Virus record (IMG/VR): IMGVR_UViG_3300042934_000563
Origin: a virus
Taxonomy: Duplodnaviria; Heunggongvirae; Uroviricota; Caudoviricetes
Direction: 5' to 3' (one strand)
DNA: 64,000 nt
Shown here: positions 10,411 to 63,753 of the stretch, piece after piece
Position numbering within the stretch: position 1 is the first letter of the stretch
Layout: each line of letters opens with the position of its first letter
Notes under the pieces: model-generated
Database searches by the model: none
What the model was told of the DNA's origin: nothing
The model's input: only the letters and a program-made list of their open reading frames with translations
Position numbers and translations under genes: made by a program

Positions 10411-10427
10411 ACTTGCGCTAATGATGG
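10411..10427 (+). promoter_or_regulatory. copy of the 17-bp motif TTGCGCTAA-N5-GAC (candidate promoter -35 or operator) followed by TAATGT
   Basis: TTGCGCTAATGATGGACAGTGTGTAATGT is followed 50 nt later by a GAGGAG SD and the ATG at 10488. Near-identical upstream region at 29481. Confidence 0.5.
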
Positions 10428-10487
10428 ACAGTGTGTAATGTGGGTTTTGCAAGGCCAGCCAGTCACCAACTACCCGAGGAGCCCACA

Positions 10488-10838
10488 ATGATCGCTTGCG
10501 GAAACAACGCCCACACCACCTACGACTACACCCGTGAGCTGGCTCGCCACATTGCCGGGACCTACCACCACACCAACGCCGCCGAGGTTCGCGCTTGCTT
10601 CGCCGCCACCCGCGCCGGTAACGCCCCCGTCGATACCGTCGAGGACGAGATTCGGGCGGAGGAGGATCGGTGGACCTACGAAAGCGAGATGGCTGCCGAG
10701 CGCGCCGCTAACAACTACTGGGAGAACCGTGGTGAGGGCTTCGCCGTAGACGGCCTCTACCAGGACGAAGTAGATCGTGGCATCATCCCCTTTCATATCG
10801 CCATGGCGGACGCCGAGCGCGCTGCCGGTATCATCTGA
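10488..10838 (+). CDS. hypothetical protein (island gene 2)
   Basis: ORF-track frame 10431..10838. Proposed start at MIACGNN with GAGGAG SD 7 nt upstream. Acidic/aromatic C-terminus. Confidence 0.55.
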   Translation: MIACGNNAHTTYDYTRELARHIAGTYHHTNAAEVRACFAATRAGNAPVDTVEDEIRAEEDRWTYESEMAAERAANNYWENRGEGFAVDGLYQDEVDRGIIPFHIAMADAERAAGII

Positions 10839-10850
10839 CACCCACCAACA

Positions 10851-10882
10851 AAAAAGCCCCCCACCAGTGCGGTGGGGGGCTT
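10851..10882. terminator. bidirectional rho-independent terminator
   Basis: GCCCCCCACC-agtgc-GGTGGGGGGC flanked by AAAAAA on one side and TTTCTCGT on the other. It terminates the plus-strand island and the minus-strand gene 10893..11243. Confidence 0.6.
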
Positions 10883-10892
10883 TCTCGTGGGC

Positions 10893-11243
10893 CTACTTGG
10901 TGTCTGCGTCAGCCTTGGCGTCTGCGTCTGCCTTGGGAGCGGCTGCCTTGGGGGCTGCTGCCTTCGCCGGGGCCTTCTTCGGCTCCGCCTTGGGGGCTTC
11001 CGACTTCTCGGAGTCCTTCGGGCGTACCGGCTCCGAGGTGAGGACTGCCGAAGCGTCCAGCACACCCTCCTCCACGGACTCGGTGACGCGGTCGCCGCCA
11101 GCAACATCCGGCGCGCCGAACGTGTTCTCGCCGTCGGCATTCACCAGCTGCGGGGTGGACTCGAATGCGTCGACGGTGGACTCGCCGTCGCCGCTGTAGT
11201 CGGGTGCTTCGACATCGTCGAGATGCGTGGTTGCCTTACTCAT
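10893..11243 (-). CDS. hypothetical acidic protein with KAAAPKA C-terminal repeats
   Basis: 116-aa ORF in the structural operon. Ala/Lys/Pro repeats at the C-terminus. Confidence 0.45.
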   Translation of the reverse strand: MSKATTHLDDVEAPDYSGDGESTVDAFESTPQLVNADGENTFGAPDVAGGDRVTESVEEGVLDASAVLTSEPVRPKDSEKSEAPKAEPKKAPAKAAAPKAAAPKADADAKADADTK

Positions 11244-11255
11244 GTCGTTCTCCTC

Positions 11256-11858
11256 TTACGGGGTGGGAGCCTGGACCGTGTTGGTCCGGGACGGTGGTGG
11301 TGTCATGCGCCCAAACACGCGGGCCGGACGTTTCGCCTGTCCAGGGTTGAACTGCCGGAGAACGGCGTCGATCTCCGCAATTCCTGTCTTGCCCTCGTCG
11401 AGAAACTCTTGTGAGTCCAGCATTGTCATGGTGACGCCCTGCCGGGTGATGCTGGTGACTCGCTGCGGGAGTCGACAATCATTGCTGCCGTCGATGCCTA
11501 GCTGGAGTTCATCGGCCAGTACGCGGATAGCTTCGGCGACACCCTCGGGGGGCGGGGAGCCGTAGCTGTAGCGGATGGACAGTCTGGCATCGGATCCGCA
11601 ACCGGCACGGTAGACGGGGGCTGCCAGGCGGATGGTCCGCCCGCTCTCCACGGTGTAGCCGTCGAGTAGTTTGTCGCCGTGGAATATCTCGATTACCTCG
11701 GTGACAGGACGCCCTTGCAGAACAATCTTCCGTTGTCCTGGGTAGGGCTGGTGATGCTCGGTGGTGGTGACCTCGGGCCACACCCACCGACGCCCGAGGA
11801 GTTCATAGATGACACGGGTAGCCATTGCGGTCGTATCTACCGGAGTAGGGCTGCTCAT
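11256..11858 (-). CDS. hypothetical structural protein (head-tail connector or tail completion candidate)
   Basis: 200-aa ORF positioned between the putative major tail gene and the downstream tail genes. Confidence 0.45.
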   Translation of the reverse strand: MSSPTPVDTTAMATRVIYELLGRRWVWPEVTTTEHHQPYPGQRKIVLQGRPVTEVIEIFHGDKLLDGYTVESGRTIRLAAPVYRAGCGSDARLSIRYSYGSPPPEGVAEAIRVLADELQLGIDGSNDCRLPQRVTSITRQGVTMTMLDSQEFLDEGKTGIAEIDAVLRQFNPGQAKRPARVFGRMTPPPSRTNTVQAPTP

Positions 11859-11884
11859 GATCTATGAACTCCTCGGACTAGGTA

Positions 11885-12856
11885 CTACGCGCCAGGCGTA
11901 GTGGTGACAACGTCGATGGCGGGGCTGGTGCCGCCTTCAAAGTTGCCGGTGGGCACGATCTGCGGCACGTTGATGCCAGCATATGCGCCCGTGAACGTGA
12001 CGGTGTACGGTCCGCCTGCGGAGCCTGCGACCAGGACGTTGCCCTGTCCGACGGATCCGAGTGCCGACAGTGCCGTCTGGACAGCCTGCGCGGTGGCATC
12101 GGCTGCGATGGGGCCCGTGGTGTCGCCACCGAATCCGAGGGTGAACGTGCCACCCGTGGGGGATCCGCTGATGGTGAGCGTCTGGACTTCGCTGATCGGT
12201 GCTGCGCCTGCCAGGACCGGGACGTAGTCGTTGACGCCGAGCGGGGCCACCGCCGAGCGTGCGTACTGGTACGCGCGGTCGGTCTGGTACGGCCAGTCTC
12301 CGCCTGCACCCTTGCCGTACTGCGCGTTGCCGACACCCCAACCCTCGAACTCGTTAGCCATCGCGCCATTTTCGAGGACGCGGTCGCCGGTGAGCTTCAT
12401 CTTGGCGTAGGGGAAAACCCAGCGCCAGTAGGGGTTGGTTGCTGCCGGACGCCCGCCGACGATGGCGCGCGAGAAAATCTCGAACGCAACGCCGTTGGGG
12501 GTGGAGTCGATGCCGGTGGCCGGTGCTGCGTAGCCGATGGCGTCGGTGCCACTCTCGGGCAGGAGGATGTTGCCGCCGATAAGCATCTCGTGCAACTCCG
12601 GGGAGGGGTTGCAGATAGCCAGCGAGAACGTGACGCGCTTGAGAACGTCGGGAGCCTGGTAGTAGATGCAGACGTTGCCGTTAGCACCCTTCTCCTCGAT
12701 CTCCTCGCCTGCCGTGTATTCGGGGGTGAATCCGAATCGCATGAATGCCTCGGTGACGATGCTCGTTTTCGGTCCGATGAGGGGCTTGCCGTCAGGCCCC
12801 AACTTGCAGACTCGAAGAGCAACGCCCTGAACGCTGGACGCGTGTTCAGATGCCAT
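11885..12856 (-). CDS. putative major tail protein with C-terminal Ig-like (TGGTFTL-type) extension
   Basis: 323 aa. C-terminal 'TLTISGSPTGGTFTLGFGGDTTGPIAADATAQAVQTALSALG...GGPYTVTFTGAY' resembles Ig-like extensions common on actinophage major tail or capsid-decoration proteins. Confidence 0.45.
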   Translation of the reverse strand: MASEHASSVQGVALRVCKLGPDGKPLIGPKTSIVTEAFMRFGFTPEYTAGEEIEEKGANGNVCIYYQAPDVLKRVTFSLAICNPSPELHEMLIGGNILLPESGTDAIGYAAPATGIDSTPNGVAFEIFSRAIVGGRPAATNPYWRWVFPYAKMKLTGDRVLENGAMANEFEGWGVGNAQYGKGAGGDWPYQTDRAYQYARSAVAPLGVNDYVPVLAGAAPISEVQTLTISGSPTGGTFTLGFGGDTTGPIAADATAQAVQTALSALGSVGQGNVLVAGSAGGPYTVTFTGAYAGINVPQIVPTGNFEGGTSPAIDVVTTTPGA

Positions 12857-12878
12857 TGTCCTTGCCTCTCTCTACTTT

Positions 12879-13562
12879 TCAGGCCGAGTCTGCTGCTCGG
12901 ACTGCTTGGAAACGATCGAATTCGATTGCGCCGAAACGCGTTACCTCGAACTCGCGTCGATTGTCGGTTCGACGCACGGATTCCGCCGTCACGATGGGCG
13001 ACAGGAAAACTTTCACGGGACCAGTGACAGCTACGGCGTCCTTCGGGTAGCCCGGAGGCACCACGAAGGGCAGTTTGAGGTTTTGCAACCCGAACTGGAG
13101 TGTCATAGCTGCCTGCCAACCGAGATGGACGACCGGCTGGATGTGGGGCGTCTGTTCGTACGCCTTCACCAGTACGTCAGCAAGCGTCGACGCCAGGTCC
13201 GCTGCACGCGGAACCTGGGTGATGTCAGGGTGTTTCATGTAGAGGGTGCCGCCCGTTCCGGGGGCCCCATTCCACATGGCCTGTGTCACGCGATACTCAG
13301 TGACGCCCGCCATGGTGTCTACGACCTTGGAGCGGATCTCCTCGGGTGCGCAACGTACCGGCACGATCTGGTTGCCGATGATTGCGAACGGGGTGAGGTC
13401 CTCGCCTAGCTCATAGTCCGGCGGGGTCGGTCGAGCCGCCGGGACACAGATGTCCGTCACGATGGACGTAAACCCGTGTCCCGACGTGTCGATTGGGTAG
13501 CCTCCGCGCGTCCACGTGCCCTCGCTCTCCACTACCTCGAAGGTCTCGAAGAACCTAGCCAT
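12879..13562 (-). CDS. hypothetical structural protein (head-tail adaptor candidate)
   Basis: 227-aa ORF immediately downstream of the capsid gene with a strong GGAGG SD. Confidence 0.45.
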   Translation of the reverse strand: MARFFETFEVVESEGTWTRGGYPIDTSGHGFTSIVTDICVPAARPTPPDYELGEDLTPFAIIGNQIVPVRCAPEEIRSKVVDTMAGVTEYRVTQAMWNGAPGTGGTLYMKHPDITQVPRAADLASTLADVLVKAYEQTPHIQPVVHLGWQAAMTLQFGLQNLKLPFVVPPGYPKDAVAVTGPVKVFLSPIVTAESVRRTDNRREFEVTRFGAIEFDRFQAVRAADSA

Positions 13563-13607
13563 GTGAACACACCTCCTCTACCAATTGACTTGCTCGAATG
13601 GGGCTGA

Positions 13608-15287
13608 TTACGGCGTGACCGGGGGGAGGCCGAGCTTGGTGCTGGAGGTGACCTCCAGGGCCTCGATGCCGACCTTTGCCACACCCTCGAACGTCTCCAC
13701 GAAGGTGACGTAGTCGTTGGTGCCGACCAGGTCAGCGTCACGAATGACGCCGAGGTCGAGCGTGCCGCCGTCCAGGAACAGGAAAGTTCCTTCGGTGAAC
13801 AGCCAGTATTTGATAGTTGCCGGGAAGTCGTTCAGGACTCCGGCACCCTGTGCGGCGAACGTGTCATCCATGTGCCAGGTGACTCGCAAGCCACGCGATG
13901 CGAACCAGGCGTCAACCTGTGCGTCGGTGATGGCGATGTCCTGGACGCCCATGTTGAAGTTCGTGGCGATGTCCTCACGGACGGAGTCACGGACCCACTC
14001 GGGGAGGATGGCTCGCAGCTGCACGCCACGCGGGATGCGGTGGCGGTTGCGGTACGCGGCGGATGCGCGGCTCACGGAGATGAGGAGGTCACGTGCGGTG
14101 CCCTGCTCGTGAGTCGTGGTGACCTTGCTGGAGAGGGCGCTGATCTTGGAGAGGAGCGTCTTCTCTGCCACGCGTGCGTGTTCGATGAGTGCCAGCTGGT
14201 TGTGGCGCTGGACCAGCTCGGGGAACGCGCGGGTCATGAGGTTGCCGAACTCCAGCGACAGCGTAATTGCGTCGGTGGTGGCGGTCAGCTCGTTAGCGCA
14301 GTTCACCTTGAGGACCGGCTTGGTCGTCGGGTTCGTCGGGTTGGCGTCGTTGATTGCCGTCCACACCGAGATAGCTCCGGTGTACGAACCGAGGACCGGG
14401 GGAGCGATGTAGCGGATGCCGCCACGGGTCGCGCCGAAGGTGGGGAGCGAGTCGCGGACGGGGCGCGCGGTCGAACCGACACCGAAGATGTCGTAGGTGT
14501 TCGGGAGCGGTGCGCAGAATCCACCGGATGCCAGGAGGGCCTTCTCGCCGCGAATCGCGTCGATCTTTGCCGCGTTGGCGGTTGCGTCCTGTCCGAGGTC
14601 GCGGTCCTCGGGGAACTCCATCCGGAGCGATGCGACTACCGCGCGGGTGCCGTCGCCCTTCATGCCGGAGGTCGAGTTGACCTGCGTGGTCATCGCCTGA
14701 GCGATGTCCGACAGGTTGCGGAACTTCTCGCCTGCGGTGTAGCCGCGAACGTCGGCACCAGCGTGAGCGGAGGCAGTAAGTGCAACGGGTGCAACTTCTT
14801 TCAGCTCGTCGGTGTTTTCAACAGCAGAAGCGGCCATTGCCAGAGCCTCACTTTCGATTTCTGCGCCTTCGCTGGTTGCTTCGGCTGCGGGGGTTTCGGC
14901 GTCTGCCGGGGCTTCGGGCTCTGCCTTGGCCTCTTCGGCTTTCGGCTCTGCCTCTGCGGCGGGCTCTGCCTTTTCGGCTTCGGCCTTCTCCGCTTTGTCG
15001 GTCTCTGCCTTTTCGGCCTTGGCCTTTTCGGCTTCGGCCTCTTCGGACTTGCCTGCCTCGTCGATCTGTTCGACTAGCTGCTCGAACATGTCGAGCTTGT
15101 TGAGTCCCTCCATCGCCTCTTTCATTCCGGGTTTGTCACCGGACGCGTCAGCGTCACGGAATGCCTCGGTGAGGTCGTCTGCAAGGGCTTCACGCTCGTC
15201 GACAGTCAGACTTACGAGACGGTCCAGGCGCGCCTGGAAAGTGTCGTCGGTGCTCATGGTTTGCCTCTCACGTATCTCTGGGGTCAC
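13608..15287 (-). CDS. major capsid protein with N-terminal charged scaffold/delta-like domain
   Basis: 559 aa. N-terminal approximately 170 aa are EAEKAK-rich and helical (AEAEKAKAEKAETDKAEKAEAEKAEP...). The rest is a beta/alpha capsid-like body. Located after the protease/scaffold candidates and before the head-tail genes. Confidence 0.65.
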   Translation of the reverse strand: MTPEIRERQTMSTDDTFQARLDRLVSLTVDEREALADDLTEAFRDADASGDKPGMKEAMEGLNKLDMFEQLVEQIDEAGKSEEAEAEKAKAEKAETDKAEKAEAEKAEPAAEAEPKAEEAKAEPEAPADAETPAAEATSEGAEIESEALAMAASAVENTDELKEVAPVALTASAHAGADVRGYTAGEKFRNLSDIAQAMTTQVNSTSGMKGDGTRAVVASLRMEFPEDRDLGQDATANAAKIDAIRGEKALLASGGFCAPLPNTYDIFGVGSTARPVRDSLPTFGATRGGIRYIAPPVLGSYTGAISVWTAINDANPTNPTTKPVLKVNCANELTATTDAITLSLEFGNLMTRAFPELVQRHNQLALIEHARVAEKTLLSKISALSSKVTTTHEQGTARDLLISVSRASAAYRNRHRIPRGVQLRAILPEWVRDSVREDIATNFNMGVQDIAITDAQVDAWFASRGLRVTWHMDDTFAAQGAGVLNDFPATIKYWLFTEGTFLFLDGGTLDLGVIRDADLVGTNDYVTFVETFEGVAKVGIEALEVTSSTKLGLPPVTP

Positions 15288-15399: not shown

Positions 15400-15408
15400 A
15401 CGGTCTAA

Positions 15409-15481: not shown

Positions 15482-15499
15482 ATCAGGGTCTAGCGGGTG

Positions 15500-16432
15500 C
15501 TACTTTTTTGCTGCGCGACGCTTGTTGAACTTCTCACGCAACGCCTTTCGCTCTTTCTCGTCGTCGTCCTCGTCGTCCTTGGGCTCGGGCTTCGACTCCT
15601 CGTCGTCCTTGTCCATCGACAGCTGGTCGCCGGATTCTTTTTTCTCGTCGTCATCGTCATCGTCGGCGTCGAACGGGGTGGCGGCTTTCTTTTTCTTCCC
15701 TGCCTCCAGTCCAGCGACGATGGCCTCCAGTTCGGCGACGCGGTCGTTGGTGCGGGTGAGGGCTGAGTAGATCGCCTGCTCCTGCTGGAGGTCGTACATG
15801 TCTCCGGCTCCGGCTGCGACCAGGGCGGTGATCTCGCCGGAGGCGACCATGGCGCGGGCCACGGGGAATCCGGGGGTGTTGACCTGGCAGACAGCGACTA
15901 GCTCCAGTGCGCCGTTGAACGGTCGCCAGTCGCCGGACGGGGCGGACGCTCGGAGGGCGCGGATCTGCTCGTCGGTGACGCCGCTGCGGATGCCGCCACT
16001 AATCCAAATGCCGTGTTGGTCCTCTCCGGCTGTCACGTCGGCGATGGCGGATGCGGTGTCGTCGTAGTGCTTGACGGCTTCCGCTGCGCCTGCGGTCATG
16101 GGGGCGTGTCCGCCTGCCAGGGTGAGCTGGCCGACGGGGGTGTCGTTACCGTCATCGAGTTTGAGGAGTCCGGTCTTGAACAACGCGTAGTCGGTGCGGC
16201 TGTGCGGGGGCTTGGTGCCGGGTGGGAGTCCGATGTGGTCGGTTGCCCACGTGGCGATGTGCCCTTTGATCTGCCCGTCGTCAGTGATGGTGAGCGGGGT
16301 GGGGCGGTCCAGCTGCGGATCCTGGTACCACTCCGCTGGAGGGAACAGGGGCCCACCGGCTGCGGTGAGGGATCGGGCTACCGTCAGAGAATCGTCCCTG
16401 ACTTCTTCGTAGAATCCGTCGACGATTCTCAT
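15500..16432 (-). CDS. scaffolding-like protein or capsid maturation protease (position-based)
   Basis: 310 aa, immediately upstream of the capsid gene. C-terminal 70 aa are extremely charged (KKKKAATPFDADDDDDDEKKESGD...EDDDEKERKALREKFNKRRAAKK). Confidence 0.45.
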   Translation of the reverse strand: MRIVDGFYEEVRDDSLTVARSLTAAGGPLFPPAEWYQDPQLDRPTPLTITDDGQIKGHIATWATDHIGLPPGTKPPHSRTDYALFKTGLLKLDDGNDTPVGQLTLAGGHAPMTAGAAEAVKHYDDTASAIADVTAGEDQHGIWISGGIRSGVTDEQIRALRASAPSGDWRPFNGALELVAVCQVNTPGFPVARAMVASGEITALVAAGAGDMYDLQQEQAIYSALTRTNDRVAELEAIVAGLEAGKKKKAATPFDADDDDDDEKKESGDQLSMDKDDEESKPEPKDDEDDDEKERKALREKFNKRRAAKK

Positions 16433-29480: not shown

Positions 29481-29497
29481 CTTGCGCTAATGGTGGA
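29481..29497 (+). promoter_or_regulatory. copy of TTGCGCTAA-N5-GAC motif followed by TATAGT
   Basis: TTGCGCTAATGGTGGACGTGTGGATATAGT. The downstream leader, including ...CCGAGGAGCCCAC(A/G)ATGAT, is nearly identical to that of gene 10488. Confidence 0.5.
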
Positions 29498-29553
29498 CGT
29501 GTGGATATAGTTCTCTCATCACCAACCGCCCAGCCCGACCCGAGGAGCCCACG

Positions 29554-35877: not shown

Positions 35878-36845
35878 TCGTATCTCCTGCCGTGTTTCTG
35901 CTGTTCCAGCGTGATCTCCTCGGCCAGGTCTTCCAGCTGTTGCCGGTGTTGTGCGGATGACTCTCCTCGGGCTTCGGCGACGGTGCCTTGTTCGATGATG
36001 ATGCCTACCTGGTGGAGGAGCCAGCTGAGCCGGTCGGCGAGGTAGCCTCCGCTAGCCTCCTGGAGGGTGGCCTTGAAGTCTTCCCGCTCCAGCTCTGCCA
36101 GATGGTCTACCTGCGCTTTCAAGTCTGCAACCTGTCGCTGGTGTGCAGAGATGATGTCGACGTTGCGTTGCCGGTCCTCGGCGCTGGTGGCGTTGGGGAT
36201 GACTCCGGGGGGTGGGGTAGCTGCGGGCCGCTCGGTGCTCGGGGTGGCGGCTACCTTGGCGACGTTCTCGAAGCTCTCGGCGAACGTGTGGTATTCGGTG
36301 GTTTCCTCCTCCCAGCGCTGCATGTACTTGGTTTTGCGCTCGGTGTGGGTGGTTTTGACTGTCTTGGGTTTCTTCGGTGGTTTCGGTTTGGTGCTTCCCG
36401 ATGAGCCCCAATCCTGGAAGGTCGGCGCGGGGACGGGCGTTCCTGGTGGGGCCATCTCGCGGAGTAGTTCTGTCAGCTCCAGCTGTGTTGCGTAGTCGCA
36501 CGCGGCGGCTAGGCGGCGCTGTTCCTGCGCCCATGCGCCCTCACGGCGTAGGCGCTTGTTCAGGTGGGCGAACAGTAGGCCCATGGCGAGGAGTAGGCCG
36601 AACACGATGAGTCCAGCTATGGGTGTTCCGGTGGCGATGGATGCCACCAGGCAGAGCACACCGAAGACGGGGAGTCCGACGGTGAGCCCTGCGGTGATTC
36701 CGATGAACAGGCGGTCGGACTTGCTGGGGAGGATGCTTCGGGCGGCGGGGAGCTGGGTGTTGTCGGTGGTGAGGGTGAACGCGTCGGCGGGTACCAGGAC
36801 GCCCGGTCCGGGTCGATATGCCAGGTCGCGGCTGTTAGGTGCCAT
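35871..36845 (-). CDS. hypothetical membrane protein with coiled-coil C-terminus
   Basis: 324 aa with two TM segments and a charged helical tail. Confidence 0.45.
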   Translation of the reverse strand: MAPNSRDLAYRPGPGVLVPADAFTLTTDNTQLPAARSILPSKSDRLFIGITAGLTVGLPVFGVLCLVASIATGTPIAGLIVFGLLLAMGLLFAHLNKRLRREGAWAQEQRRLAAACDYATQLELTELLREMAPPGTPVPAPTFQDWGSSGSTKPKPPKKPKTVKTTHTERKTKYMQRWEEETTEYHTFAESFENVAKVAATPSTERPAATPPPGVIPNATSAEDRQRNVDIISAHQRQVADLKAQVDHLAELEREDFKATLQEASGGYLADRLSWLLHQVGIIIEQGTVAEARGESSAQHRQQLEDLAEEITLEQQKHGRRYEW

Positions 36846-37275
36846 CGCTTGTGCCCTTCTTGTTGTGGATCCTGTTGTACGTGACGCCGTCGACTTGCTT
36901 GTCGATGTCTTCGCGGCGGAGGTAGACGATATGTCCGGGTCCGGCGTAGGCGGGGAGGTCTTGGCGCTCGCGGATCCGTCCGATTGTGCGTTTGGTGACG
37001 CCTAGTTGTTCGGCTGCGGCGTCGACGCTGATGAGGTCGGGGGTGACCTCGACTACTGCCATCTTCTCGACTTCGTCGCGGTAGTAGTAGCGGGTGTGTT
37101 TACGACCGGACTTGCGGGCATTCATCGCGGCTAGGACTGACTTGTTGTTGCCGGATTTGATGATGTTGTTGAGTGCCCAGTTTCGGATGGTCTGGTGTGT
37201 CACTCCTGCCAGTTCGGCAGCTTCGTTCAGTCCTACGACGTTGGCTAGGCTGTCGCGCTGCTGGGTGCTTGTCAT
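36835..37275 (-). CDS. DNA-binding protein with two MerR/excisionase-type HTH motifs
   Basis: 'AAELAGVTHQTIRNWAL' and 'AAEQLGVTKRTIGRIRERQDLP'. Confidence 0.55.
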   Translation of the reverse strand: MTSTQQRDSLANVVGLNEAAELAGVTHQTIRNWALNNIIKSGNNKSVLAAMNARKSGRKHTRYYYRDEVEKMAVVEVTPDLISVDAAAEQLGVTKRTIGRIRERQDLPAYAGPGHIVYLRREDIDKQVDGVTYNRIHNKKGTSDGT

Positions 37276-37338: not shown

Positions 37339-37602
37339 TCAGATGTCGCCTAGGGCGATATGCAGGGCGAACGCCATAGATGTCAGTGAGCGGTAGATGT
37401 CCGACTTGGATAGTCCGAGGTTGCGGTGTTCTCCGGCGCGCACTTGGAGGGTGGTGGGGAGGTTGGCGCTCGGCTTGCCGAAGACAACTTCGCAGATAAT
37501 GCGGCCACGCTTGTCGGCTCCGGCGCGCATCATGAGCTGTCGGACATCGTTAGCGGCGTTCAGGATCTGGTCCCGGCTGGGGGATTTGGTGATGGTGTCC
37601 AT
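37339..37602 (-). CDS. hypothetical protein
   Basis: 87-aa ORF preceded by the variant motif TTGTGCTAATCTTAGAC at 37633..37649 (minus-strand orientation). Confidence 0.4.
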   Translation of the reverse strand: MDTITKSPSRDQILNAANDVRQLMMRAGADKRGRIICEVVFGKPSANLPTTLQVRAGEHRNLGLSKSDIYRSLTSMAFALHIALGDI

Positions 37603-37666
37603 GGGGCTCCTTTGGTTGGGTGTGTGGTGCTTTGTCTAAGATTAGCACAAGTGCATCGGTGTGCAA

Positions 37667-41074: not shown

Positions 41075-41352
41075 GGCTTCCCGTTTCGTTGTATGAGGGT
41101 CCAGTCCGGGTGGTCCAGGTTGGAGAGGAGGGTTTGGCCGGACTCGGTGTGCATGATCGTATAACGACGCATCTCGCGGGCGGGGGGTGTGTGGACAGCG
41201 GTGACCAGGTAGGCGTGGTCTCGGTAGGCGATGAGGTCACCGAGTTCTGCGTCTCCGGTTACGGGCTGTCCGATGGGGTTCATGGTGGGCTCCTGAGTGG
41301 GTGTTGGTGCTGGTGTGGACTCTACCCTAGGTGGTGTCCGGGTGTTGCGCAA
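41071..41352 (-). CDS. hypothetical protein
   Basis: 93-aa ORF, ATGA overlap. Confidence 0.4.
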   Translation of the reverse strand: MRNTRTPPRVESTPAPTPTQEPTMNPIGQPVTGDAELGDLIAYRDHAYLVTAVHTPPAREMRRYTIMHTESGQTLLSNLDHPDWTLIQRNGKP

Positions 41353-45243: not shown

Positions 45244-45335
45244 GGTGGCCTCCGGGGTAGTGGGTGGTGGTGCGTTGGTGAAACAATAACACCCTGTCGC
45301 GGTTTAGCGCAACAGGGTGGCGTTGTGGGGCGTTT

Positions 45336-50980: not shown

Positions 50981-51310
50981 CTAGTTGTCGTCCGCGTTTA
51001 GCGCAAGCTCCGTGGGGTCGGTGATGGTGAATTGGTAGGTGAGTCCAGCGTGTGAGCACATTTTGAGGAGTTGTTGGATGCTGCATCGGTGGAGGTTTCC
51101 GACCATGACGCGGCTTATTTGTGACTGGTTGGTTCCGAGGTGTTGCGCTGCCTCGGTCTGTGTCCAGCCTTGCGTTTCGATGTAGGTGGTGAGGATCCGG
51201 GTGAGTCCGCGCCGGATGGCGTACGCCTGCCGGTTGTGGGTGCGGGATTCGGGGTAGTGCTTGATGGCGGCGTAGTCGTCGTCCGTGGGGATGTCGTGGA
51301 TGGTGGTCAT
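50981..51310 (-). CDS. XRE-family helix-turn-helix transcriptional regulator
   Basis: 'WTQTEAAQHLGTNQSQISRVMVG' HTH. Internal start MTTIHDIP of track frame 50981..51778. Confidence 0.55.
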   Translation of the reverse strand: MTTIHDIPTDDDYAAIKHYPESRTHNRQAYAIRRGLTRILTTYIETQGWTQTEAAQHLGTNQSQISRVMVGNLHRCSIQQLLKMCSHAGLTYQFTITDPTELALNADDN

Positions 51311-53203: not shown

Positions 53204-53406
53204 ACCTTAATTGCTGTCTGTCCTTAGCGCAATTTGTTGGTCGGCGTGTCGTCACATAGAGAGCATGTGGGGGTGCCGTTCCATGGGTTTCAGGGTGTAG
53301 CGGATGTGGGGGTTTTTGCGGTCGTAGTATGCGCGTCCCATGCTGTGGGTGAGGTTCACCAGGTGGTATCGGTCGCGGTGGCGCTGTGTCTCGGTGTCGA
53401 CTTCTT

Positions 53407-53986: not shown

Positions 53987-55534
53987 AGGTGGACGTGCCG
54001 TCGGAGGGGGTAGGGGGTCATGAGGATGTGCTCTTTGGTTTTGCTGCTGTCGGGGGTGTGCTGGCGGGCGATGTGGCGGGCATAGTCGTTGTCGCGTGCG
54101 ACGGTGGCGCGGAGGTCTACAGGCCCGCTATGTGGGGGTGTCGGTGGATGATCCATCGCTGGTCTCCGATCATGGGTAGGTAGATGTCGATGATGCCGCC
54201 GATTCGTCGGCGTCCGTCTGGGGTTCTGCGGACGATGGCTCGGAAGGTTTCGCGGTCGAGTTCGTAGGCGTCGATGGCGTTCACGGGTAGATCCATCCTC
54301 GGAGGTGTAGGTGCCGGGTGTCTTCGTGTTTGGCGTCGTGAACCATGTAGTAGAGGTTCCGCGGGAAGTCGTCTCCGTCTTCGGCGGGGAAGATTCTCAT
54401 GAGGATGTCGTCGACGTGGTGGTGGTCGATGACGAACTGGATTTGTCTGCGGGGACTAAACACGGTTGACACTCTCCCAGTACGGGACCATGTGCGGGTA
54501 ACGGTCGGTGGCGTAGCGGCTGTTGGCGATGTGTTTGCCGTGGCCGCTGGAGTCGAACGGGTAGTCGTCGGCGTACCGCTTGAGGTGGGCGGCGATAACG
54601 GCTATATCCGCTGTCCGCTTCTGGTAGGGCCAGTTTCCGCAAGGCATGGTCAGCGCCGCTCGAACAGGTGGGGGTGGCGGACTGCTGCGCTGCGGTGTCT
54701 GACGACGCGGTCGAATAGTCGGCTGGGGTGGTCTTTGATCTCGGTGAGTTCGACGGCGAGGTTGGTGAGGGTGATGTGGTCGCGTTCCCACCAGAGTCTG
54801 GATCGGGTCATGGGGTGGTCTCTCGTTGGTTGATGGTGCTAGTTGTCCGAGTTTAGCGCATGTGTCTAGTCGTCGTCGTAGATGGTGGGGTCGTAGCCGT
54901 CGGATTTTTCGATGCCGTCGTAGAGGGGGCAGGTGTAGGCGGCTTTGATGTGGGGGTGTCTGGTGCGGTGGTGGTCGAGTTCGTGGAGGAGGGCTCCGAG
55001 TGGGTTGGGGACGATTCTGGGGTCGTAGAACTTGTTGGCGTTGTCGTCGAGGACGGTGATGTCCAGGTGGGGGTTGAGGGTGCTGTAGCGGTAGAGGGCG
55101 TGTTCTAGGTCGTAGTGGTATTCGTGGCGGTTGGTTGCGTAGTGCTTGCGGGTGTGTCTGGCTTGGGATGGTGGGAAGGGGAGGACGGGGGTGGGGGTCA
55201 TCTGTCGTACCTCCAGGGGGTCATGTGTGGGTGCCGGTTGCGGATGTAGAGGGTGTCGTTGGTGAGGTAGGTGGGTTGTCTGCCGATGAGGACTACCAGG
55301 TAGTTGTCGTCGATTCGGGACCAGCCGCGTATCTGCATCTCCTGCTGTGAGGTGAAGTCGGGTAGGGATGTCATCGTCGGGTAATCATCCGTCTCATGTG
55401 GGGGTGTCTGTGGGATACGTAGAGGGCTCTGGTGGCGTACATGTCGATTCCACGTACGAGTTTTTCGATGTGTTGGTCGTCGACGGTTGTCCAGCCGCGT
55501 ATCTGGGTTTGTGCTCGGAGGTTGGCGGCGGGGG

Positions 55535-59498: not shown

Positions 59499-59699
59499 TC
59501 AGTAGATGTCGTCGGGGGTGTGGGGGTGGCGGGTGTATTGGTTGGTTCCGGCGTCGATGATCTGTGCTCGGGTGGTGTAGTCGGCGAAGCTGCCGTGGAA
59601 GTAGAGGCGGTGGTGGTCGGCGAGGTCGCTGGCTGCGCCGTAGTCGCGGCGGTGTCGTTTGATCTCGATGGGGGTGAGGGGTGGGGGTTCGGTGCTCAT
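59499..59699 (-). CDS. RHPH-family small protein
   Basis: ...RRDYGAASDLADHHR...AQIIDAGTNQYTRHPHTPDDIY. Confidence 0.55.
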   Translation of the reverse strand: MSTEPPPLTPIEIKRHRRDYGAASDLADHHRLYFHGSFADYTTRAQIIDAGTNQYTRHPHTPDDIY

Positions 59700-59709
59700 G
59701 GGTGGTTTC

Positions 59710-59904
59710 CTAGCGGATGTTGGGGTGTATGTGTGGGTAGCGGTTGCGTACGTCGGCGTTGTCGACGATGCGGTGGTAGTTGCGGGTGTCGGTGTAATGG
59801 TCGTCGCTTCTGTAGGTGTTGTGGAGGTAGAGGCTGTGCATGGCGGCGAGGTTCTCGTAGTGGTCGTAGTCGAAGCTGGTTTGGGACATTTTTCGGAGGG
59901 TCAT
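59710..59904 (-). CDS. RHPH-family small protein (RYPHI variant)
   Basis: ...YHRIVDNADVRNRYPHIHPNIR. Confidence 0.55.
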   Translation of the reverse strand: MTLRKMSQTSFDYDHYENLAAMHSLYLHNTYRSDDHYTDTRNYHRIVDNADVRNRYPHIHPNIR

Positions 59905-59907
59905 GGG

Positions 59908-60099
59908 TTACCACCAGGCTAGTTCGGGGTCGATGTGGGGGTGTCGGTTGTAGTTTTCGGGGAGTCCGATGATGGTCCGGTAGGTGTGGGCGCGGCGTTT
60001 TCCTCGGTAGACGGAGATGTAGGGGTAGCCGTTGGCTGCTGCGACTTTTTTGAAGTACCAGAAGTCGCGGTCGGTGATGGCTTGTTGTTCGGGGGTCAT
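59908..60099 (-). CDS. RHPH-family small protein
   Basis: ...TIIGLPENYNRHPHIDPELAWW. Confidence 0.55.
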   Translation of the reverse strand: MTPEQQAITDRDFWYFKKVAAANGYPYISVYRGKRRAHTYRTIIGLPENYNRHPHIDPELAWW

Positions 60100-60293
60100 A
60101 GTTGTCCGGCTAGGGGGGTTCGGGGGTGGCGGACGTAGGGGAGGTGTTGGTTGACGATGCGCCAGTGGGTGGGGGTGGTGCGGTTGGTGTATGCGTCGGG
60201 GAAGCTGTGGCCGTTGGCTTTGGCGAGGTCGTCTAGGTGGTCTTCGTCGGCGTATTGGCGGTCGTAGAATCCGGCGTGGGTGTGGTGGATCAT
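60096..60293 (-). CDS. RHPH-family small protein (RHPRT variant)
   Basis: ...THWRIVNQHLPYVRHPRTPLAGQL. Confidence 0.5.
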   Translation of the reverse strand: MIHHTHAGFYDRQYADEDHLDDLAKANGHSFPDAYTNRTTPTHWRIVNQHLPYVRHPRTPLAGQL

Positions 60294-60496
60294 CGTCCGG
60301 TCCGGTTGGGGGTGGTGAGTGGGGTTCCGAGGTGGCGGTTGCCGCTGGTGCAGTTTTCGAGGATGCGCCAGTAGGCGCGGGGGTCGCCGCGTTCGACGGC
60401 GGCTTTGTGGTTGACGCCGTGGTAGAGGGCGATGTCGTTGAGGTGGCGGATGTCTTCTTGGTGGTGGGTGATTAGTCGGAGGTGTGGGGGGATCAT
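60290..60496 (-). CDS. RHPH-family small protein (degenerate NRHLG variant)
   Basis: ...AYWRILENCTSGNRHLGTPLTTPNRTGR. Confidence 0.5.
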   Translation of the reverse strand: MIPPHLRLITHHQEDIRHLNDIALYHGVNHKAAVERGDPRAYWRILENCTSGNRHLGTPLTTPNRTGR

Positions 60497-60708
60497 CTGA
60501 GTCCTTGGCGGGTGAGTTCGTGGGGGATGTGGTAGTGGCGGATGCCTGCGAGTGAGGTGTCGACTATGCGCCAGTGGGTGCGGTCTAGTTGGGCGTAGTC
60601 CACTCGGGTGTTGTGGTCGCGGGCTGCTCGGAGGATGTCAGCGTGGTTGATGTCGGCGATGGTTCTGGTGTGTTTGTAGTCGGTTTCTCGTCGTTCGTGG
60701 GTGGTCAT
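60493..60708 (-). CDS. RHPH-family small protein (RHYHI variant)
   Basis: ...TDYKHTRTIADINHADILRAARDHNT...HWRIVDTSLAGIRHYHIPHELTRQGLR. Confidence 0.55.
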   Translation of the reverse strand: MTTHERRETDYKHTRTIADINHADILRAARDHNTRVDYAQLDRTHWRIVDTSLAGIRHYHIPHELTRQGLR

Positions 60709-60896
60709 CGTGCTCCGATGGTGGTGAGTCGGTCGGGGAGGTGTGGGTGTCTGTGGTCGGGGTGGGAGGTTCGCACGATGTACCAGTAGAGGGTGTCTGC
60801 GTCCGGGTCGTGGTGGTTGAGGAGGGTGGTTTTGTTTCTGTCGGTGATGGCGCTGATGTAGGGGTAGTCGATGCGGAGTTGTTCGCGGGGGGTCAT
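60705..60896 (-). CDS. RHPH-family small protein
   Basis: ...YWYIVRTSHPDHRHPHLPDRLTTIGAR. Confidence 0.6.
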   Translation of the reverse strand: MTPREQLRIDYPYISAITDRNKTTLLNHHDPDADTLYWYIVRTSHPDHRHPHLPDRLTTIGAR

Positions 60897-61081
60897 TCGG
60901 CGAGGTCCTTGGTGATGTGGGGGTGTCGGCAGGTGGGGAGTGTTTGTTTGGTGATGCTTTGGCCGGTGTCTCCGAAGCGTTCGCCGGGGAGTGTGTGGTT
61001 GCGGGCGATTCTGTCGGCGTGGTTGTAGTCGATGACGGTCCGGTCGTAGAGGCGGTCTCCGGGGTTGATGTAGCTGGTCAT
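60893..61081 (-). CDS. RHPH-family small protein
   Basis: ...VIDYNHADRIARNHT...TKQTLPTCRHPHITKDLAE. Confidence 0.6.
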   Translation of the reverse strand: MTSYINPGDRLYDRTVIDYNHADRIARNHTLPGERFGDTGQSITKQTLPTCRHPHITKDLAE

Positions 61082-61278
61082 CGGTTGGTGGCCTCCATGA
61101 TCTCTCTGCCTAGGTGTGGGTGCCGGTGGTGGCGGGTGGCTTGGTCGATCATGTGGAGGTCGACGTTGGCGTAGCCGTTTTCGCGGGGGGTGTGGATTTC
61201 GGCGAGGTCGTCGATGTGACTGTAGTCGCGGGTGAATTGTTGGGTGGTGTGGCGGTTGTGTTTGATCTTGGGTTTCAT
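61078..61278 (-). CDS. RHPH-family small protein
   Basis: ...TRDYSHIDDLAEIHT...HMIDQATRHHRHPHLGREIMEATNR. Confidence 0.6.
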   Translation of the reverse strand: MKPKIKHNRHTTQQFTRDYSHIDDLAEIHTPRENGYANVDLHMIDQATRHHRHPHLGREIMEATNR

Positions 61279-61472
61279 GTGCGTAGTTCCTGGAGTAGCT
61301 GGAGGTGGTGGGGGTGGCGGTAGTAGGTGCTGGCTTGGTCGGCGATGCGGTAGCCGGGGTTGGGGTGGCCGACGGGCATGGGGGCGATGTGGGTGCGGAT
61401 GAGTGAGTGGAGGGTGGAGTAGTCGCGGCGGTAGATGTGTTCGTAGGTGCGTTGGTAGGTGGGTGCGGTCAT
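61275..61472 (-). CDS. RHPH-family small protein
   Basis: ...RRDYSTLHSLIRTHIAP...YRIADQASTYYRHPHHLQLLQELRT. ATGA overlap. Confidence 0.6.
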   Translation of the reverse strand: MTAPTYQRTYEHIYRRDYSTLHSLIRTHIAPMPVGHPNPGYRIADQASTYYRHPHHLQLLQELRT

Positions 61473-61660
61473 CGGTGGTTCCTGATTTCTCGGATGAGTT
61501 TGGTGTGGTGGGGGTGTCTGCCGAGGGGGCTGGCTTGGTCGGCGATGAGGCTGGTGTGGGTGGGTATTCCGAGGGTGTCGTGGGTGGTGGTGTGGTCGCG
61601 GGCGATGTGGTCGAGTGCGTTGTAGTCGCGGGTGAGAGCTTGGCCGTAGGGGGTGGTCAT
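61469..61660 (-). CDS. RHPH-family small protein
   Basis: MTTPYGQALTRDYNALDHIARDHT...SLIADQASPLGRHPHHTKLIREIRNHR. Confidence 0.6.
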   Translation of the reverse strand: MTTPYGQALTRDYNALDHIARDHTTTHDTLGIPTHTSLIADQASPLGRHPHHTKLIREIRNHR

Positions 61661-61848
61661 GTGTAGTAGTTCCCCATGTGTGGGTGGCGGTTGTGTGCGG
61701 CGGCTTTTCCGTAGATGCCGAAGTAGGTGTCCATGCGGTCGGTGTCGCCGTTGCAGCTTCTCCAGGTGTAGCCGTTGCGGTCGGCGACTAATCCGAGTGC
61801 GCCGGAGTCGATGTTGAGTTGGGTGATGTGTCTAGAAGTGCTGCGCAT
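61657..61848 (-). CDS. RHPH-family small protein
   Basis: ...KAAAHNRHPHMGNYYT. Confidence 0.55.
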   Translation of the reverse strand: MRSTSRHITQLNIDSGALGLVADRNGYTWRSCNGDTDRMDTYFGIYGKAAAHNRHPHMGNYYT

Positions 61849-62026
61849 AGGGGCCGCTCATGTGTGGGTGTCGGTTGATTTGGTGGGTGAGGTCGACGAT
61901 GAGGCCGTGGATGTGGACGCGGGTGCTGTCTCGTTTGCAGTGGGCCCATCCGTAGCCGTGGGTGATGGCGATGTCGCCGAAGGCGTCGAGGTCGGTGATG
62001 TGTACGTCGAAGGGGTCGCGGGGCAT
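61832..62026 (-). CDS. RHPH-family small protein
   Basis: ...THQINRHPHMSGPYAQHF. Confidence 0.55.
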   Translation of the reverse strand: MPRDPFDVHITDLDAFGDIAITHGYGWAHCKRDSTRVHIHGLIVDLTHQINRHPHMSGPYAQHF

Positions 62027-62223
62027 GGGGTGCCTGTCAGTGGTAGTCGAGGTGGGGGTGCCGGAATCGGATGGATGTGGCGGTGCGGATGTGGTGGTGG
62101 CTGTACTCCCACCAGTAGGGCTTGGGTGTGGGTAGGCGGTAGGCGGTTCTGGCGGTGATGTCGTCCAGGTATCGGGCGTCGCGGATCCGGGCGTCGAGTG
62201 GGTTGAGGGGCATGTGGGTCCTG

Positions 62224-62385
62224 TCAGTGGAGGTGGGGGTGTCGGAATCTGAGTTGGGAGTTTCGGACGATGATGGTGTGGCTGTGGAGCCAGCTGGGGT
62301 GGACTTTGTCCCAGTCGGCGGCGTTGTGGGTAGCTACGCGCTGGAGGTGCTCGGAGTCCCGGATCCGGGCTTTCTGTGGGTGGGT
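62224..62385 (-). CDS. RHPH-family small protein (first array unit; ...LRFRHPHLH)
   Basis: Internal ATG of track frame 62224..62532, immediately downstream of two tandem TTGCGCTAATC.GGGAC motif copies. Confidence 0.5.
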   Translation of the reverse strand, partial: THPQKARIRDSEHLQRVATHNAADWDKVHPSWLHSHTIIVRNSQLRFRHPHLH

Positions 62386-62397
62386 GGGCATCTTGCC

Positions 62398-62461
62398 ATT
62401 GTCCCTGATTAGCGCAACCTTGGCAAGTGGGCCCTGGTGGTGTCCGGGATTAGCGCAAGTG
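62398..62461 (-). promoter_or_regulatory. two tandem copies of TTGCGCTAATC(C/A)GGGACA about 42 bp apart, immediately upstream of the RHPH array
   Basis: Plus-strand GATTAGCGCAACC at about 62404 and GATTAGCGCAAGTG at about 62446. The minus-orientation copies are separated by 25 bp. The ATG of the first array gene follows the proximal copy by about 19 nt, suggesting a short or absent leader. Confidence 0.5.
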
Positions 62462-62530
62462 AATTGTATTTGAGTTGTGCGGGCGGGCAGCCGAGGGGTT
62501 TTTTGAGCGAACTTTTGGGCTTTGACCAGC

Positions 62531-62590
62531 ATATATACGACTCTCCGAGTCGTATCGTTCGCGTTGCGAACGACCGTAGCGCTGAGCGCT
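62531..62590. repeat. three consecutive perfect palindromes (ATACGACTC-tcc-GAGTCGTAT; CGTTCGC-gtt-GCGAACG; CGTAGCGC-tga-GCGCTACG)
   Basis: Seen directly. Located between the end of gene 62589..62846 and the array promoters. Confidence 0.6.
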
Positions 62591-62846
62591 ACGCTGCGCC
62601 CTCGGGCGGAGTCTCCAGGATCTCGATCAGCTGGAGGCCAATTCCAGCCTCTGTGGTGCCCTGTAGGGCCCGTGCGTACTCGAACAGTGTCGCCCTGGAC
62701 TGTATGAGGAGCTGGACAGCTGCCAGCATCCCAGCGACATCCTCGGTCCGAAGCGATACCCGAGGTTCATCCTCTAAATGCGCCTCCAGCACAGCACCCT
62801 GCACGCGCTCCAGCAGTACGACGATGGGGTTGATGGGTTCAGTCAT
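62589..62846 (-). CDS. hypothetical small protein
   Basis: About 85-aa ORF (MTEPINPIVVLLERVQGAVLEAHLEDE...). A GTG at 62852 could be an alternative start. Confidence 0.4.
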   Translation of the reverse strand: MTEPINPIVVLLERVQGAVLEAHLEDEPRVSLRTEDVAGMLAAVQLLIQSRATLFEYARALQGTTEAGIGLQLIEILETPPEGAA

Positions 62847-62852
62847 AGGCAC

Positions 62853-63060
62853 ACACTATGCGAACCATGCACGCACACCATGCACACCATGCACTGCACA
62901 CATGGACAGCTATGCACATACGCATACACATGCACACATACACACAGTACATACATGCTGGTAGACCATGGTATTGCTATGTGTATGTGTATGTGGGTAC
63001 ACACATACACACATGGGTATGTACCACACTATGTAGTACCTATGTAGTAGGGCCTGTAGT
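62853..63060. repeat. CA/TG-rich alternating purine-pyrimidine tract with reiterated CATGCAC(A) heptamers and TATGTGTATGTG / GGTACACACATAC palindromic segments
   Basis: Seen directly. Non-coding, and compositionally very different from the rest of the window. Confidence 0.6.
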
Positions 63061-63500
63061 AGGGGCCCTATATAGGCCCTATGTGGAGGGCCCTATATGC
63101 GACTTCTCCATAAGGCCCATATAGAAGGCCCTATATAGGCCCTTTCTGGGCAATTCGATATATGCGATTTCCCTATTAGAGCCTCCAGGAGGGCCCATAT
63201 AGCGAAACGCGCATATGGGGATCCTTAGCATAGGCAACTTTTCTACCAGGGCTTATTAGGGAACCCTTATCCAGCTTTACATAATGGGTATTATCGGCAA
63301 AGTTTGTATATCCGCAGGTCACAGCGTTTTCGATTTCTTTGTACCACGGTACAAACCCTAATACGGTTGGTACAAAGGATTTGGGCGGATCCGGCCAACC
63401 GAGCAGGGCCAGCCGGACCCTTTCAAACAACCCACGGCGCAGGAAACGCCAATTCCCAGACATCCCTCGGGGGAGACGAAAGGCCCATATGGGGCCCTCC
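63053..63500. repeat. at least 7 copies of the palindromic motif GGCCC(T/A)TATA(G/T)GGCCC, plus TTTGTACC-acg-GGTACAAA and TTGGTACAAA sites
   Basis: GGGGCCCTATATAGGCCC (63063), GGCCCTATATG (63088), GGCCCATATAG (63113), GGCCCTATATAGGCCC (63124), GGCCCATATAG (63188), GGCCCATATGGGGCC (63480). Lower-GC stretch 63240-63340. Confidence 0.6.
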
Positions 63501-63736
63501 AGAGGATCATTGTGTGATTCTCGATGTTGGACCGCCCACGATACGCCAAAACGCCCTCCAGGGCACTGGGAGCGACTTATCGCGGTCGATGAGGGGACCG
63601 ACTAACGGCGACGAACAGTGTGAGCCCCTGGAGGGCGCAACCGTGTGGAATCGGTGCTGAGGCGAGACACACGGCAGATCGGAGCATACAGGCCGATATA
63701 TGCAAATTGTCCACCGGGGTCACAAAGTCGATTCTT

Positions 63737-63753
63737 GCGCTAACTAACGACTC
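63737..63753 (+). promoter_or_regulatory. copy of TTGCGCTAA-N5-GAC motif (TTGCGCTAACTAACGAC) on the plus strand near the window end
   Basis: Flanked by direct repeats GGGGTCACAA(A)GT (63714, 63850) and a GACCGAA-gattg-TTCGGTC hairpin (63824..63842). No ORF is visible downstream within the window. Confidence 0.35.

Follow-up and report, generated by a model that had tools for sequence, protein, structure and literature searches.

A 17-base sequence in two conserved blocks recurs ahead of genes along the stretch of DNA analysed here, a window of 64,000 nucleotides from the Caudoviricetes record IMGVR_UViG_3300042934_000563, and the question that it raises is what reads it: the RNA polymerase of the host, a regulator of the phage, or both. 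The first-pass annotation of the window had described at least 10 copies of this sequence (hereafter, the box), always aimed at a downstream gene, and had suggested either a shared class of promoters with extra conserved positions or a stoperator-like operator for a phage regulator. Our best overall explanation, which we consider probable, is that the box marks a lineage-specific class of promoters and is also bound by a putative phage regulator.

The box has the form TTGCGCTAA-N5-GAC and is represented in the window by 8 exact copies, compared to 0.00 expected from shuffled sequences; when one mismatch is permitted, the number of copies rises to 10, compared to 0.08 expected. In a weight-matrix scan, these ten sites score 20-27 bits, with the next best site at 15.3 bits and the maxima in shuffled sequences at 8.7-15.4 bits. 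An 11th, degenerate member, TTGCGCAACACCCGGAC at 41352 on the minus strand, is followed by a 17-nucleotide (nt) spacer, the hexamer TAGGGT, a ribosome-binding site and a start codon. Thus, the bipartite motif was described correctly at first pass and gains one member; the sites listed there are genuine, although their positions were off by 0-9 nt. The scans cover ~73 kb of a ~110-kb phage genome, and the sites, each named by the 5' base on the motif strand, are as follows.

10413 (+), 10413..10429: box TTGCGCTAATGATGGAC; −10 hexamer TAATGT at 10436-10441 after a 17-nt spacer; gene start at 10488.
10360-10384: hairpin with a T-run, a textbook terminator directly upstream of the 10413 box.
29482 (+), 29482..29498: box TTGCGCTAATGGTGGAC; −10 hexamer TATAGT at 29506-29511 after an 18-nt spacer; start of a DUF6011 gene at 29554.
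37650 (−), 37634..37650: box TTGTGCTAATCTTAGAC; upstream of gene 37339..37602 and of a gene for a protein with two helix-turn-helix (HTH) domains; no TAnnnT at 17-18 nt.
41352 (−), 41336..41352: the degenerate box; −10 hexamer TAGGGT at 41324-41329; gene start at 41283.
45312 (−), 45296..45312: box TTGCGCTAAACCGCGAC; −10 hexamer TATTGT at 45283-45288 after an 18-nt spacer; gene start at 45243.
51006 (−), 50990..51006: box TTGCGCTAAACGCGGAC, over the last codons of an XRE-like gene; −10 hexamer TAGGGT at 50978-50983 after a 17-nt spacer; gene start at 50948.
53232 (−), 53216..53232: box TTGCGCTAAGGACAGAC; −10 hexamer TAAGGT at 53204-53209 after a 17-nt spacer; gene start at 53170.
54861 (−), 54845..54861: box ATGCGCTAAACTCGGAC; weak CACCAT at 17 nt and an internal TAAACT; gene start at 54811.
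62417 (−), 62401..62417: box TTGCGCTAATCAGGGAC, the proximal copy of a tandem pair; ends 9 nt before the ATG at 62391 of the first gene of the tiny-gene array.
62458 (−), 62442..62458: box TTGCGCTAATCCCGGAC, the distal copy of the pair, 41 bp upstream of the proximal one; no −10-like hexamer.
63735 (+), 63735..63751: orphan box TTGCGCTAACTAACGAC; no −10 and no downstream open reading frame (ORF); located beyond a 1.1-kb non-coding region rich in repeats.

Nearly all of the ~114 genes in our map, which is based on codon usage and matches the gene calls of the assembly wherever the two overlap, are encoded on the minus strand, and the map resolves into the following blocks.

Roughly 1-28793: virion genes.
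8642-10838 and 28840-32784, plus strand: two islands embedded in the virion operon.
32851-53170: non-structural genes.
53252-62391, minus strand: array of ~50 tiny genes.

By this map, intergenic DNA accounts for 10% of the window, yet 9 of the 10 non-degenerate sites are wholly intergenic, and the tenth (51006) overlaps just the final ~25 nt of gene 50981..51310; the weight-matrix scan and the comparison of intergenic with coding DNA that had been proposed as a check thus show that the copies are not scattered at random through coding sequence. The pair at 62417 and 62458 falls in a 102-amino-acid (aa) ORF called by the assembly gene finder, and we treat both copies as intergenic because the third-codon-position GC content of the upstream part of this ORF is 0.57, compared to 0.82 in the 55-aa gene that starts at 62391, and because this shorter gene matches its array neighbours in size and C-terminal motif. 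Ten of the 11 copies aim at the next gene. The exception, for which the original generalization fails, is 63735, which faces ~225 nt of DNA devoid of ORFs and, beyond it, the 3' end (stop codon) of a convergent gene whose product has a C-terminus similar to that of the small (beta) subunit of ribonucleotide reductase.

The boxes are carried by the non-structural units and the two islands, and the virion operon is devoid of them, as initially reported: the structural block (10839-28793), positions 1-8600 and the 8.7 kb that adjoin the window at its start are all free of copies. Because the virion operon lacks the box, a non-late regulon can be reasonably inferred for the box-headed units; an early or middle regulon had been suggested at first pass. 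Two of the copies, 10413 and 29482, share 16 of the 17 box bases as well as TCACCAAC and the near-identical acccgaggagcccac(a/g)ATGAT(c/t)GC; because the leader common to 10413-10495 and 29482-29560 includes the ribosome-binding region and the first three codons (Met-Ile-Ala), these are probably duplicated promoter-leader cassettes and not independent copies. Inverted repeats flank the boxes at 45312, 62417 and 10413 and are not common to the box copies.

The link between the box and transcription initiation comes from its spacing to a second element. In six window copies (10413, 29482, 45312, 51006, 53232 and 41352), TAnnnT is located 17-18 nt after the TTGCGC of the box, a coupling that the first-pass annotation had already recorded for the first five. 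In this GC-rich window (GC ~62%), the frequency of TAnnnT per position is 0.0017 overall but reaches 0.0055 in intergenic DNA, and the probability that at least 5 of the 10 original copies are followed by it at 17-18 nt by chance is 1e-10 to 4e-8. All six instances of TTGCGC-N16-19-TAnnnT in the window have GAC at the same offset, and a looser scan for TTGnnn-N16-18-TAnnnT yielded 10 intergenic matches, 6 of which overlap boxes, 5 in the −35 register. If transcription starts ~7 nt past the −10 hexamer, the predicted leaders are 23-40 nt long and contain a ribosome-binding site of the GGAG type ahead of the start codon, in agreement with the earlier description. Furthermore, among 19 sites pooled across lineages, 9 have hairpins of −20 to −31 kcal/mol within 55 nt upstream, and because such stable hairpins lie just upstream of many boxes, the layout reads as the end of one unit followed by the promoter of the next.

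Altogether, the −35/−10 arrangement of a sigma-70/sigma-A-type promoter is seen in 6 of the 11 window copies and in 13 of the 19 pooled copies, and a position upstream of and co-oriented with a gene in all window copies except 63735. The coupling to the −10 hexamer, the constant offset of GAC, the hairpins and the footprint at syntenic positions described below strongly support the shared promoter class that was originally suggested, and we consider it very probable that the box constitutes the −35 element and part of the spacer of a sigma-A-type promoter, with a predicted function in initiation.

Several individual sites deviate from, or elaborate on, this layout. A hairpin of −28 kcal/mol adjoins the 41352 box. 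At 45312, the box lies within a 12-pair inverted repeat, 45290-45319 (CACCCTGTTGCG...CGCGACAGGGTG), with a T-rich tail next to it, such that a terminator-like hairpin and a predicted promoter share one stretch of DNA. The 62417 box overlaps the spacer and the −10 of a second possible promoter, TTGCCA-17-GACAAT (62426..62398), whose start point would coincide with the ATG at 62391 and would produce a leaderless mRNA. Upstream of the 37650 box there is a hairpin, and the TAATCT inside this box lies 16 nt past an upstream TTGCAC. This is one of three sites at which the TAA of the box may begin an internal −10 where the downstream one is missing (TAATCT at 37650 and at its orthologue in the related lineage L289; TAAACT at 54861), an association that is suggestive only, with P of about 0.05 and two of the three sites being orthologues.

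Conservation in relatives shows which bases are kept. Homologues of the double-HTH protein encoded behind the 37650 box are found in other metagenomes at 99% (strain L292), 67% and 60% (lineage L289) identity, and the contigs identified through this protein share synteny with the window over a segment that runs from the phosphatase or cutinase-like genes up to and including the terminase. The lineages at 67% and 60% have the box at matching intergenic positions. Four positions are syntenic, namely, those upstream of the DUF6011 gene, where the box is kept in three relative lineages; of the small gene or genes that lead up to the double-HTH gene; of a 65-70-aa gene that follows the DUF7352 gene and its neighbour; and of the cutinase-like gene. 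The 41352 box has syntenic copies in lineages L287 and L289, and the L289 orthologue of the 37650 box, with the same TTGTGCTAATCT, likewise lacks a downstream −10 and contains TAATCT. In alignments of these spacers, conservation is limited to the box, the ribosome-binding site and the start codon, and the flanks have diverged. In a 95%-identical strain, the 51006 box is identical and its −10 has changed from TAGGGT to TAAGGT.

Across the 19 pooled sites, T2, G3, C6, A8, G15 and C17 are invariant, and T1, C4, G5, T7, A9 and A16 are nearly so; the five positions that separate TAA from GAC are unconstrained, except that G is favoured directly before GAC. The spacing between the two blocks is fixed in 19 of 19 sites, the distance from the box to the −10 being 17, 18 or, once, 20 nt. 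The −10 itself conforms to TAnnnT in 13 of the 19 sites and to the weaker CAnnnT in three more. One difference between relatives falls at a box: in strain L292, the box at 182-198 (TTGCCCTAACCTCGGAC plus TACGGT) stands directly before the cutinase-like gene, and the window (44793-45335) has in its place a 214-bp spacer that lacks a box, together with an additional gene of 78 aa that has its own box, which makes this a mosaic junction at a promoter.

Outside these lineages the box was not encountered in multiple copies in any contig scanned. A scan of IMG/VR with the pattern CTTGCGCTAANNNNGGAC produced 78 single matches, which is chance level, and no carrier of multiple copies; the same scan of a metagenome collection gave only single matches, and no multi-copy carrier, among the matches listed. 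The terminase relatives in IMG/VR are all at most 45% identical, and none has the box. A full-text literature search for TTGCGCTAA retrieved only unrelated papers among the matches listed.

Does a promoter consensus account for all of this? The simplest alternative to our preferred explanation is that the sigma-A of the host reads the box and that the extra bases reflect spacer shape, additional contacts or the descent of the sites from a common cassette, without any phage factor. The presence of TAnnnT in the correct register at 13 of the 19 sites fits such a scheme, and so do the evidently duplicated cassettes at 10413 and 29482; in phages including T4 and T5, early promoters likewise have conserved positions in common beyond the two hexamers. 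However, sigma region 4 contacts the −35 hexamer, and here the bases at approximately −29 to −27 (TAA) and −22 to −19 (GGAC) match TTG in conservation and surpass the −10 hexamers: A8, G15 and C17 remain invariant across lineages in which the double-HTH protein is 60-67% identical, whereas the −10 hexamers vary freely. Recent duplication cannot explain this pattern because neither the flanks nor the N5 positions are conserved. Moreover, the distance of GAC is constant with respect to the −35 block and not to the −10, which suggests that GAC and the −35 block form a single recognition unit. Finally, 62458 and 63735 have no −10 at all, and 63735 has no gene either. We therefore regard a pure promoter consensus as unlikely, although a serious contender.

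These same features (invariant spacer positions, rigid internal spacing and copies without a −10) lead us to infer a second, sequence-specific reader of the box, and the balance of the evidence tips modestly towards its existence. The centres of the two blocks are ~11 bp apart, that is, one helical turn, a geometry in which two reading heads could well occupy consecutive major grooves from the same side of the helix. The copies outside the usual promoter register comprise 62458 and 63735, 62417, which lies over the spacer and −10 of another promoter, and 37650 with its orthologue. Three of these (62417, 62458 and 63735) cluster around the 1.1-kb repeat-rich non-coding region, and operator sets are commonly arranged in such clusters. 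A putative operator function is compatible with the data and, in our view, likely.

The window encodes two clear HTH proteins, the XRE-like 50981..51310 and the following candidate.

36835..37275, minus strand: 146-aa protein with two winged-HTH (wHTH) domains of the MerR/excisionase type, encoded in the operon behind the 37650 box.

The candidate matches HTH_17 and MerR in Pfam and, in PHROG, excisionase/regulator and MerR-like families. Its AlphaFold2 (AF2) model (mean pLDDT 81) consists of two wHTH units joined by a conserved basic linker; the fold matches are all weak, TraN of pIP501 being the best, followed by the DNA-binding domain of SoxR, RacA, mycobacteriophage Xis and BldC, and no solved structure is matched significantly in sequence. 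Orthologues are present in every box-bearing lineage examined. A tblastn search of 50,697 phage records (INPHARED, which should include the cluster A phages) gave no match, nor were relatives found in IMG/VR or GTDB genomes. Because the double-HTH protein is kept in diverged box-bearing lineages and the XRE-like protein is represented only by a 98%-identical strain variant, apart from weak matches in enterobacterial phages, the comparison mildly favours the former as the reader. Even so, its identification with the reader is tentative and, in our estimate, rather unlikely to prove correct.

Under the explanation that we prefer, TTGCGC would serve as the −35 element read by the principal (sigma-A/HrdB-type) RNA polymerase of the host, followed 17-18 nt later by a −10 hexamer TAnnnT, often TAnnGT, with the start ~7 nt beyond and a leader of 23-40 nt. 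Each box would head one transcription unit, in many cases after the hairpin that closes the previous one, and the boxes would drive the tiny-gene array, the minus-strand blocks of nucleotide-metabolism and unknown-function genes and the two plus-strand islands. The nine-base TTGCGCTAA and the (G)GAC(A) exactly five bases on would form one rigid unit, with the blocks about one turn apart, and a phage-encoded, probably monomeric, two-domain protein would bind this unit, covering the −35 and the spacer from a single face of the helix. Such a protein would switch all the box promoters together, most likely by repression through competition with sigma region 4; activation is conceivable as well. 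The copies at 62417, 62458 and 63735, in the large non-coding control region, would act mainly as operators. With 36835..37275 as the best candidate, the presence of a box on its own operon suggests autoregulation. In the most far-reaching form of this scheme, the box would be the operator of an undescribed global switch, in which a monomer of 36835..37275 sits over every non-late promoter and on the promoter-less copies, and either shuts off or licenses the early/middle programme; we give this version limited credence.

Several points weigh against the preferred explanation. Five window copies have no good −10, and the start sites are predictions. TTGCGC has just 3 of 6 bases in common with TTGACA, the −35 consensus of E. 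coli, for which reason a generic promoter scan with the E. coli consensus did not call the box sites; the assignment presumes that TTGCGC suits actinobacterial sigma-A. Strong phage promoters can show extended conservation without an additional factor. The fold matches of the candidate have E values of 3e-3 or worse and TM scores of 0.25-0.37 over the full length. The co-occurrence of the box and the double-HTH protein is circular, given that the lineages were found through this protein. The genome of Gordonia phage Sixama, scanned in its entirety, contains no box, nor does this phage encode the double-HTH protein, but Sixama is too distant for a fair negative control. Finally, the ~37 kb outside the scans may encode a sigma factor or another regulator.

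The last point bears on a further possibility, namely, that a phage sigma factor or activator replaces the recognition of the −35, similarly to MotA and AsiA of T4, and that the box-headed units are middle genes. The 9-bp block is located ~14-15 bp upstream of a host-type −10, a layout that resembles that of the T4 middle promoters, and the geometry is strictly fixed in 13 sites; such a factor could be encoded in the ~37 kb just mentioned. Indeed, in T4 middle promoters, with the MotA box at −30, and in class II promoters of MarA/SoxS, an asymmetric, oriented box at the −35 is combined with a host −10, as it is here. However, no sigma-70-family, MotA or AsiA domain was detected among the scanned or precomputed proteins of the window and its flanks, nor an AraC-family protein in the window (Pfam, PHROG), and in contrast to MotA-dependent promoters, from which the −35 is absent, the box retains the TTG typical of a host −35 as an invariant element. 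In addition, the head of the tiny-gene array, which is expected among the first genes to be transcribed, has a box, and the few copies in other registers relative to a −10 would be poorly tolerated by an activator. Thus, we consider a non-host specificity factor improbable.

Still less probable is a roadblock in the sense of the stoperators of cluster A mycobacteriophages, where a bound repressor would halt the elongating polymerase between genes and any promoter activity would be incidental. The box does resemble the cluster A operators and stoperators in being a short, asymmetric, repeated intergenic site with an orientation tied to transcription (PMC9283540), and 62458 and 63735 have no promoter features. 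Operator copies in cluster A also overlap early promoters, as the box is predicted to do, and the cluster A repressor (L5 gp71; TipsytheTRex) has been solved as a two-domain monomer on an asymmetric, orientation-dependent site, its domains filling successive major grooves on one face, which fits the one-turn spacing of the blocks here (PMC9283540). However, the box is unrelated in sequence to the cluster A consensus GGTGGMTGTCAAG, and no gp71-type repressor was recognised, a negative that rests on the candidate and not on a direct comparison of window proteins with gp71: the candidate has no tblastn match in the phage records searched and contains two MerR/Xis-type wHTH domains as opposed to an HTH and a 'stoperator' domain. 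Furthermore, most copies (13 of 19) are in the exact −35 register with a −10 and not away from promoters, in many cases transcription would have been ended by a hairpin before it reached the box, and the copies are fewer than in cluster A, 11 in 64 kb, the ~50 closely spaced genes of the array having none between them. The scanned proteins of the part of the genome that was read showed neither an integrase nor an immunity cassette, and in that part we found no evidence of lysogeny. A literal form of the stoperator-like reading raised by the first-pass annotation is a poor fit for most copies. A signal acting in RNA, such as a processing or protein-binding site in intercistronic mRNA, agrees with the strand-specific, intergenic occurrence of the box but is scarcely credible, given that the copies have no common secondary structure (only 45312 lies in a hairpin), match no Rfam family and are coupled to a −10 at promoter spacing, for which there is no rationale at the RNA level.

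Returning to the combination of a promoter class and a putative regulator, a known parallel in distribution is found in Microbacterium phages of cluster EC, which carry an 18-bp asymmetric motif in ~12 copies per genome, in small intergenic gaps and with an unproven function, similar repeats being present in clusters EI and EG (PMC7302621). Like that motif, the box is specific to its lineage and lies upstream of start codons, among non-structural genes and in islands inside the structural region (PMC7302621); it is asymmetric, occurs in ~10 or more copies in short intergenic gaps and is kept within the lineage. The cluster EC motif is located 14-30 bp from the start codon, whereas the box begins 48-75 bp upstream and is coupled to a −10 (PMC7302621). 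As to the putative reader, small MerR/excisionase-like wHTH regulators, which share the predicted fold of the candidate, are repressors that recognise directional, non-palindromic sites: directional repeats are the targets of BldC-type proteins (PMC5859096), and the MerR-like Gp36 of mycobacteriophage D29 represses early and late genes (PMC12266134). TraN of pIP501 (PDB 4pm3/4p0y) combines two such domains in one chain, as the candidate does. The resemblance of the modelled candidate to BldC, Gp36 and TraN is one of fold only and is weak over the full length.

The phage itself is uncultured, probably actinobacterial and known from metagenomes; its ~110-kb genome is represented by two contigs of one public sequencing run, SRR35185192_26554 (75,960 bp) and SRR35185192_59473 (33,986 bp), which join at a tRNA-Lys(UUU) gene at 30360-30435 (+), inside a plus-strand island. 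The only match in an Rfam search was a tRNA. A megablast search with 12 kb against isolated phages detected no close relative at the DNA level, and the large terminase is 50-54% identical in amino acid sequence to those of the Gordonia phages Sixama, GMA2 and Forza, the nearest isolates. One protein, 51307-52206 (−), joins an HNH nuclease domain and a HIT domain.

The array at 53252-62391 (−) comprises ~50 tandem genes that encode 50-78 aa each, most of them overlapping by 4 bp (ATGA). Arg-His-Pro-His-(Ile/Leu/Met) is the C-terminus of many of the products, and the DNA word CACCCCCAC occurs 26 times. The genes form a large paralogous array whose proteins have no Pfam or PHROG match. The adjacent ~1.1-kb non-coding region (62850-63700), which box copies flank in divergent orientation, is of lower GC content and includes the palindromes GGCCCTATATAGGCCC, units of GGCCCATATAG and runs of CACACAT(A/G)CACACA; it looks like an origin or a packaging/control region.

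Other short elements were noted, several of them near late genes. Directly before the start codon of the terminase (28793-28825) is CTTAGACTAAG(C/T)AACTATG with the palindrome CTTAG-A-CTAAG, which is also present in L287 (17317-17362) and L289 (16957-17002) and is thus kept in three lineages that are otherwise diverged in this area; the ATG is preceded at 8 nt by TAGACT, which might act in regulation or as the −10 of a late transcript that has no leader. The palindrome TTAGT(T/A)TCCGTAACTAA occurs at 15384-15400 and 16459-16475, on either side of the capsid-like gene 15500..16432, and a related GTTAG...CTGCTAAC element lies at 35362-35439, upstream of an LtfC-like tail gene, and in both relative lineages; these elements may represent a signal specific to late genes. 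The word GACAACTA has 11 occurrences, compared to about 1 expected, including 28814-28821 (−), 18155-18162 (−), 8608-8615 (+) and 63800-63807 (+), and ACAACTA is the most enriched 7-mer in intergenic DNA. At 54861 and 51006, GACAACTA merges with the GGAC of the box; some instances merely hold the stop codons at gene ends.

Taken together, these results place the box as a further case of the recognised lineage-specific, asymmetric intergenic repeats of actinophages, its contribution being an uncommonly clear link with a promoter −10 and a plausible reader with two domains. With the box, transcription units can be mapped directly in a lineage of ~110-kb actinophages known only from metagenomes, and actinobacterial genetics gains a compact promoter-plus-operator element that can be tested. 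Should the two-domain regulator prove real, it would represent, besides cluster A, a second, independently evolved case in which a whole phage programme is controlled by a monomer on an asymmetric site; otherwise, the box would be an ordinary, well-behaved class of phage promoters.

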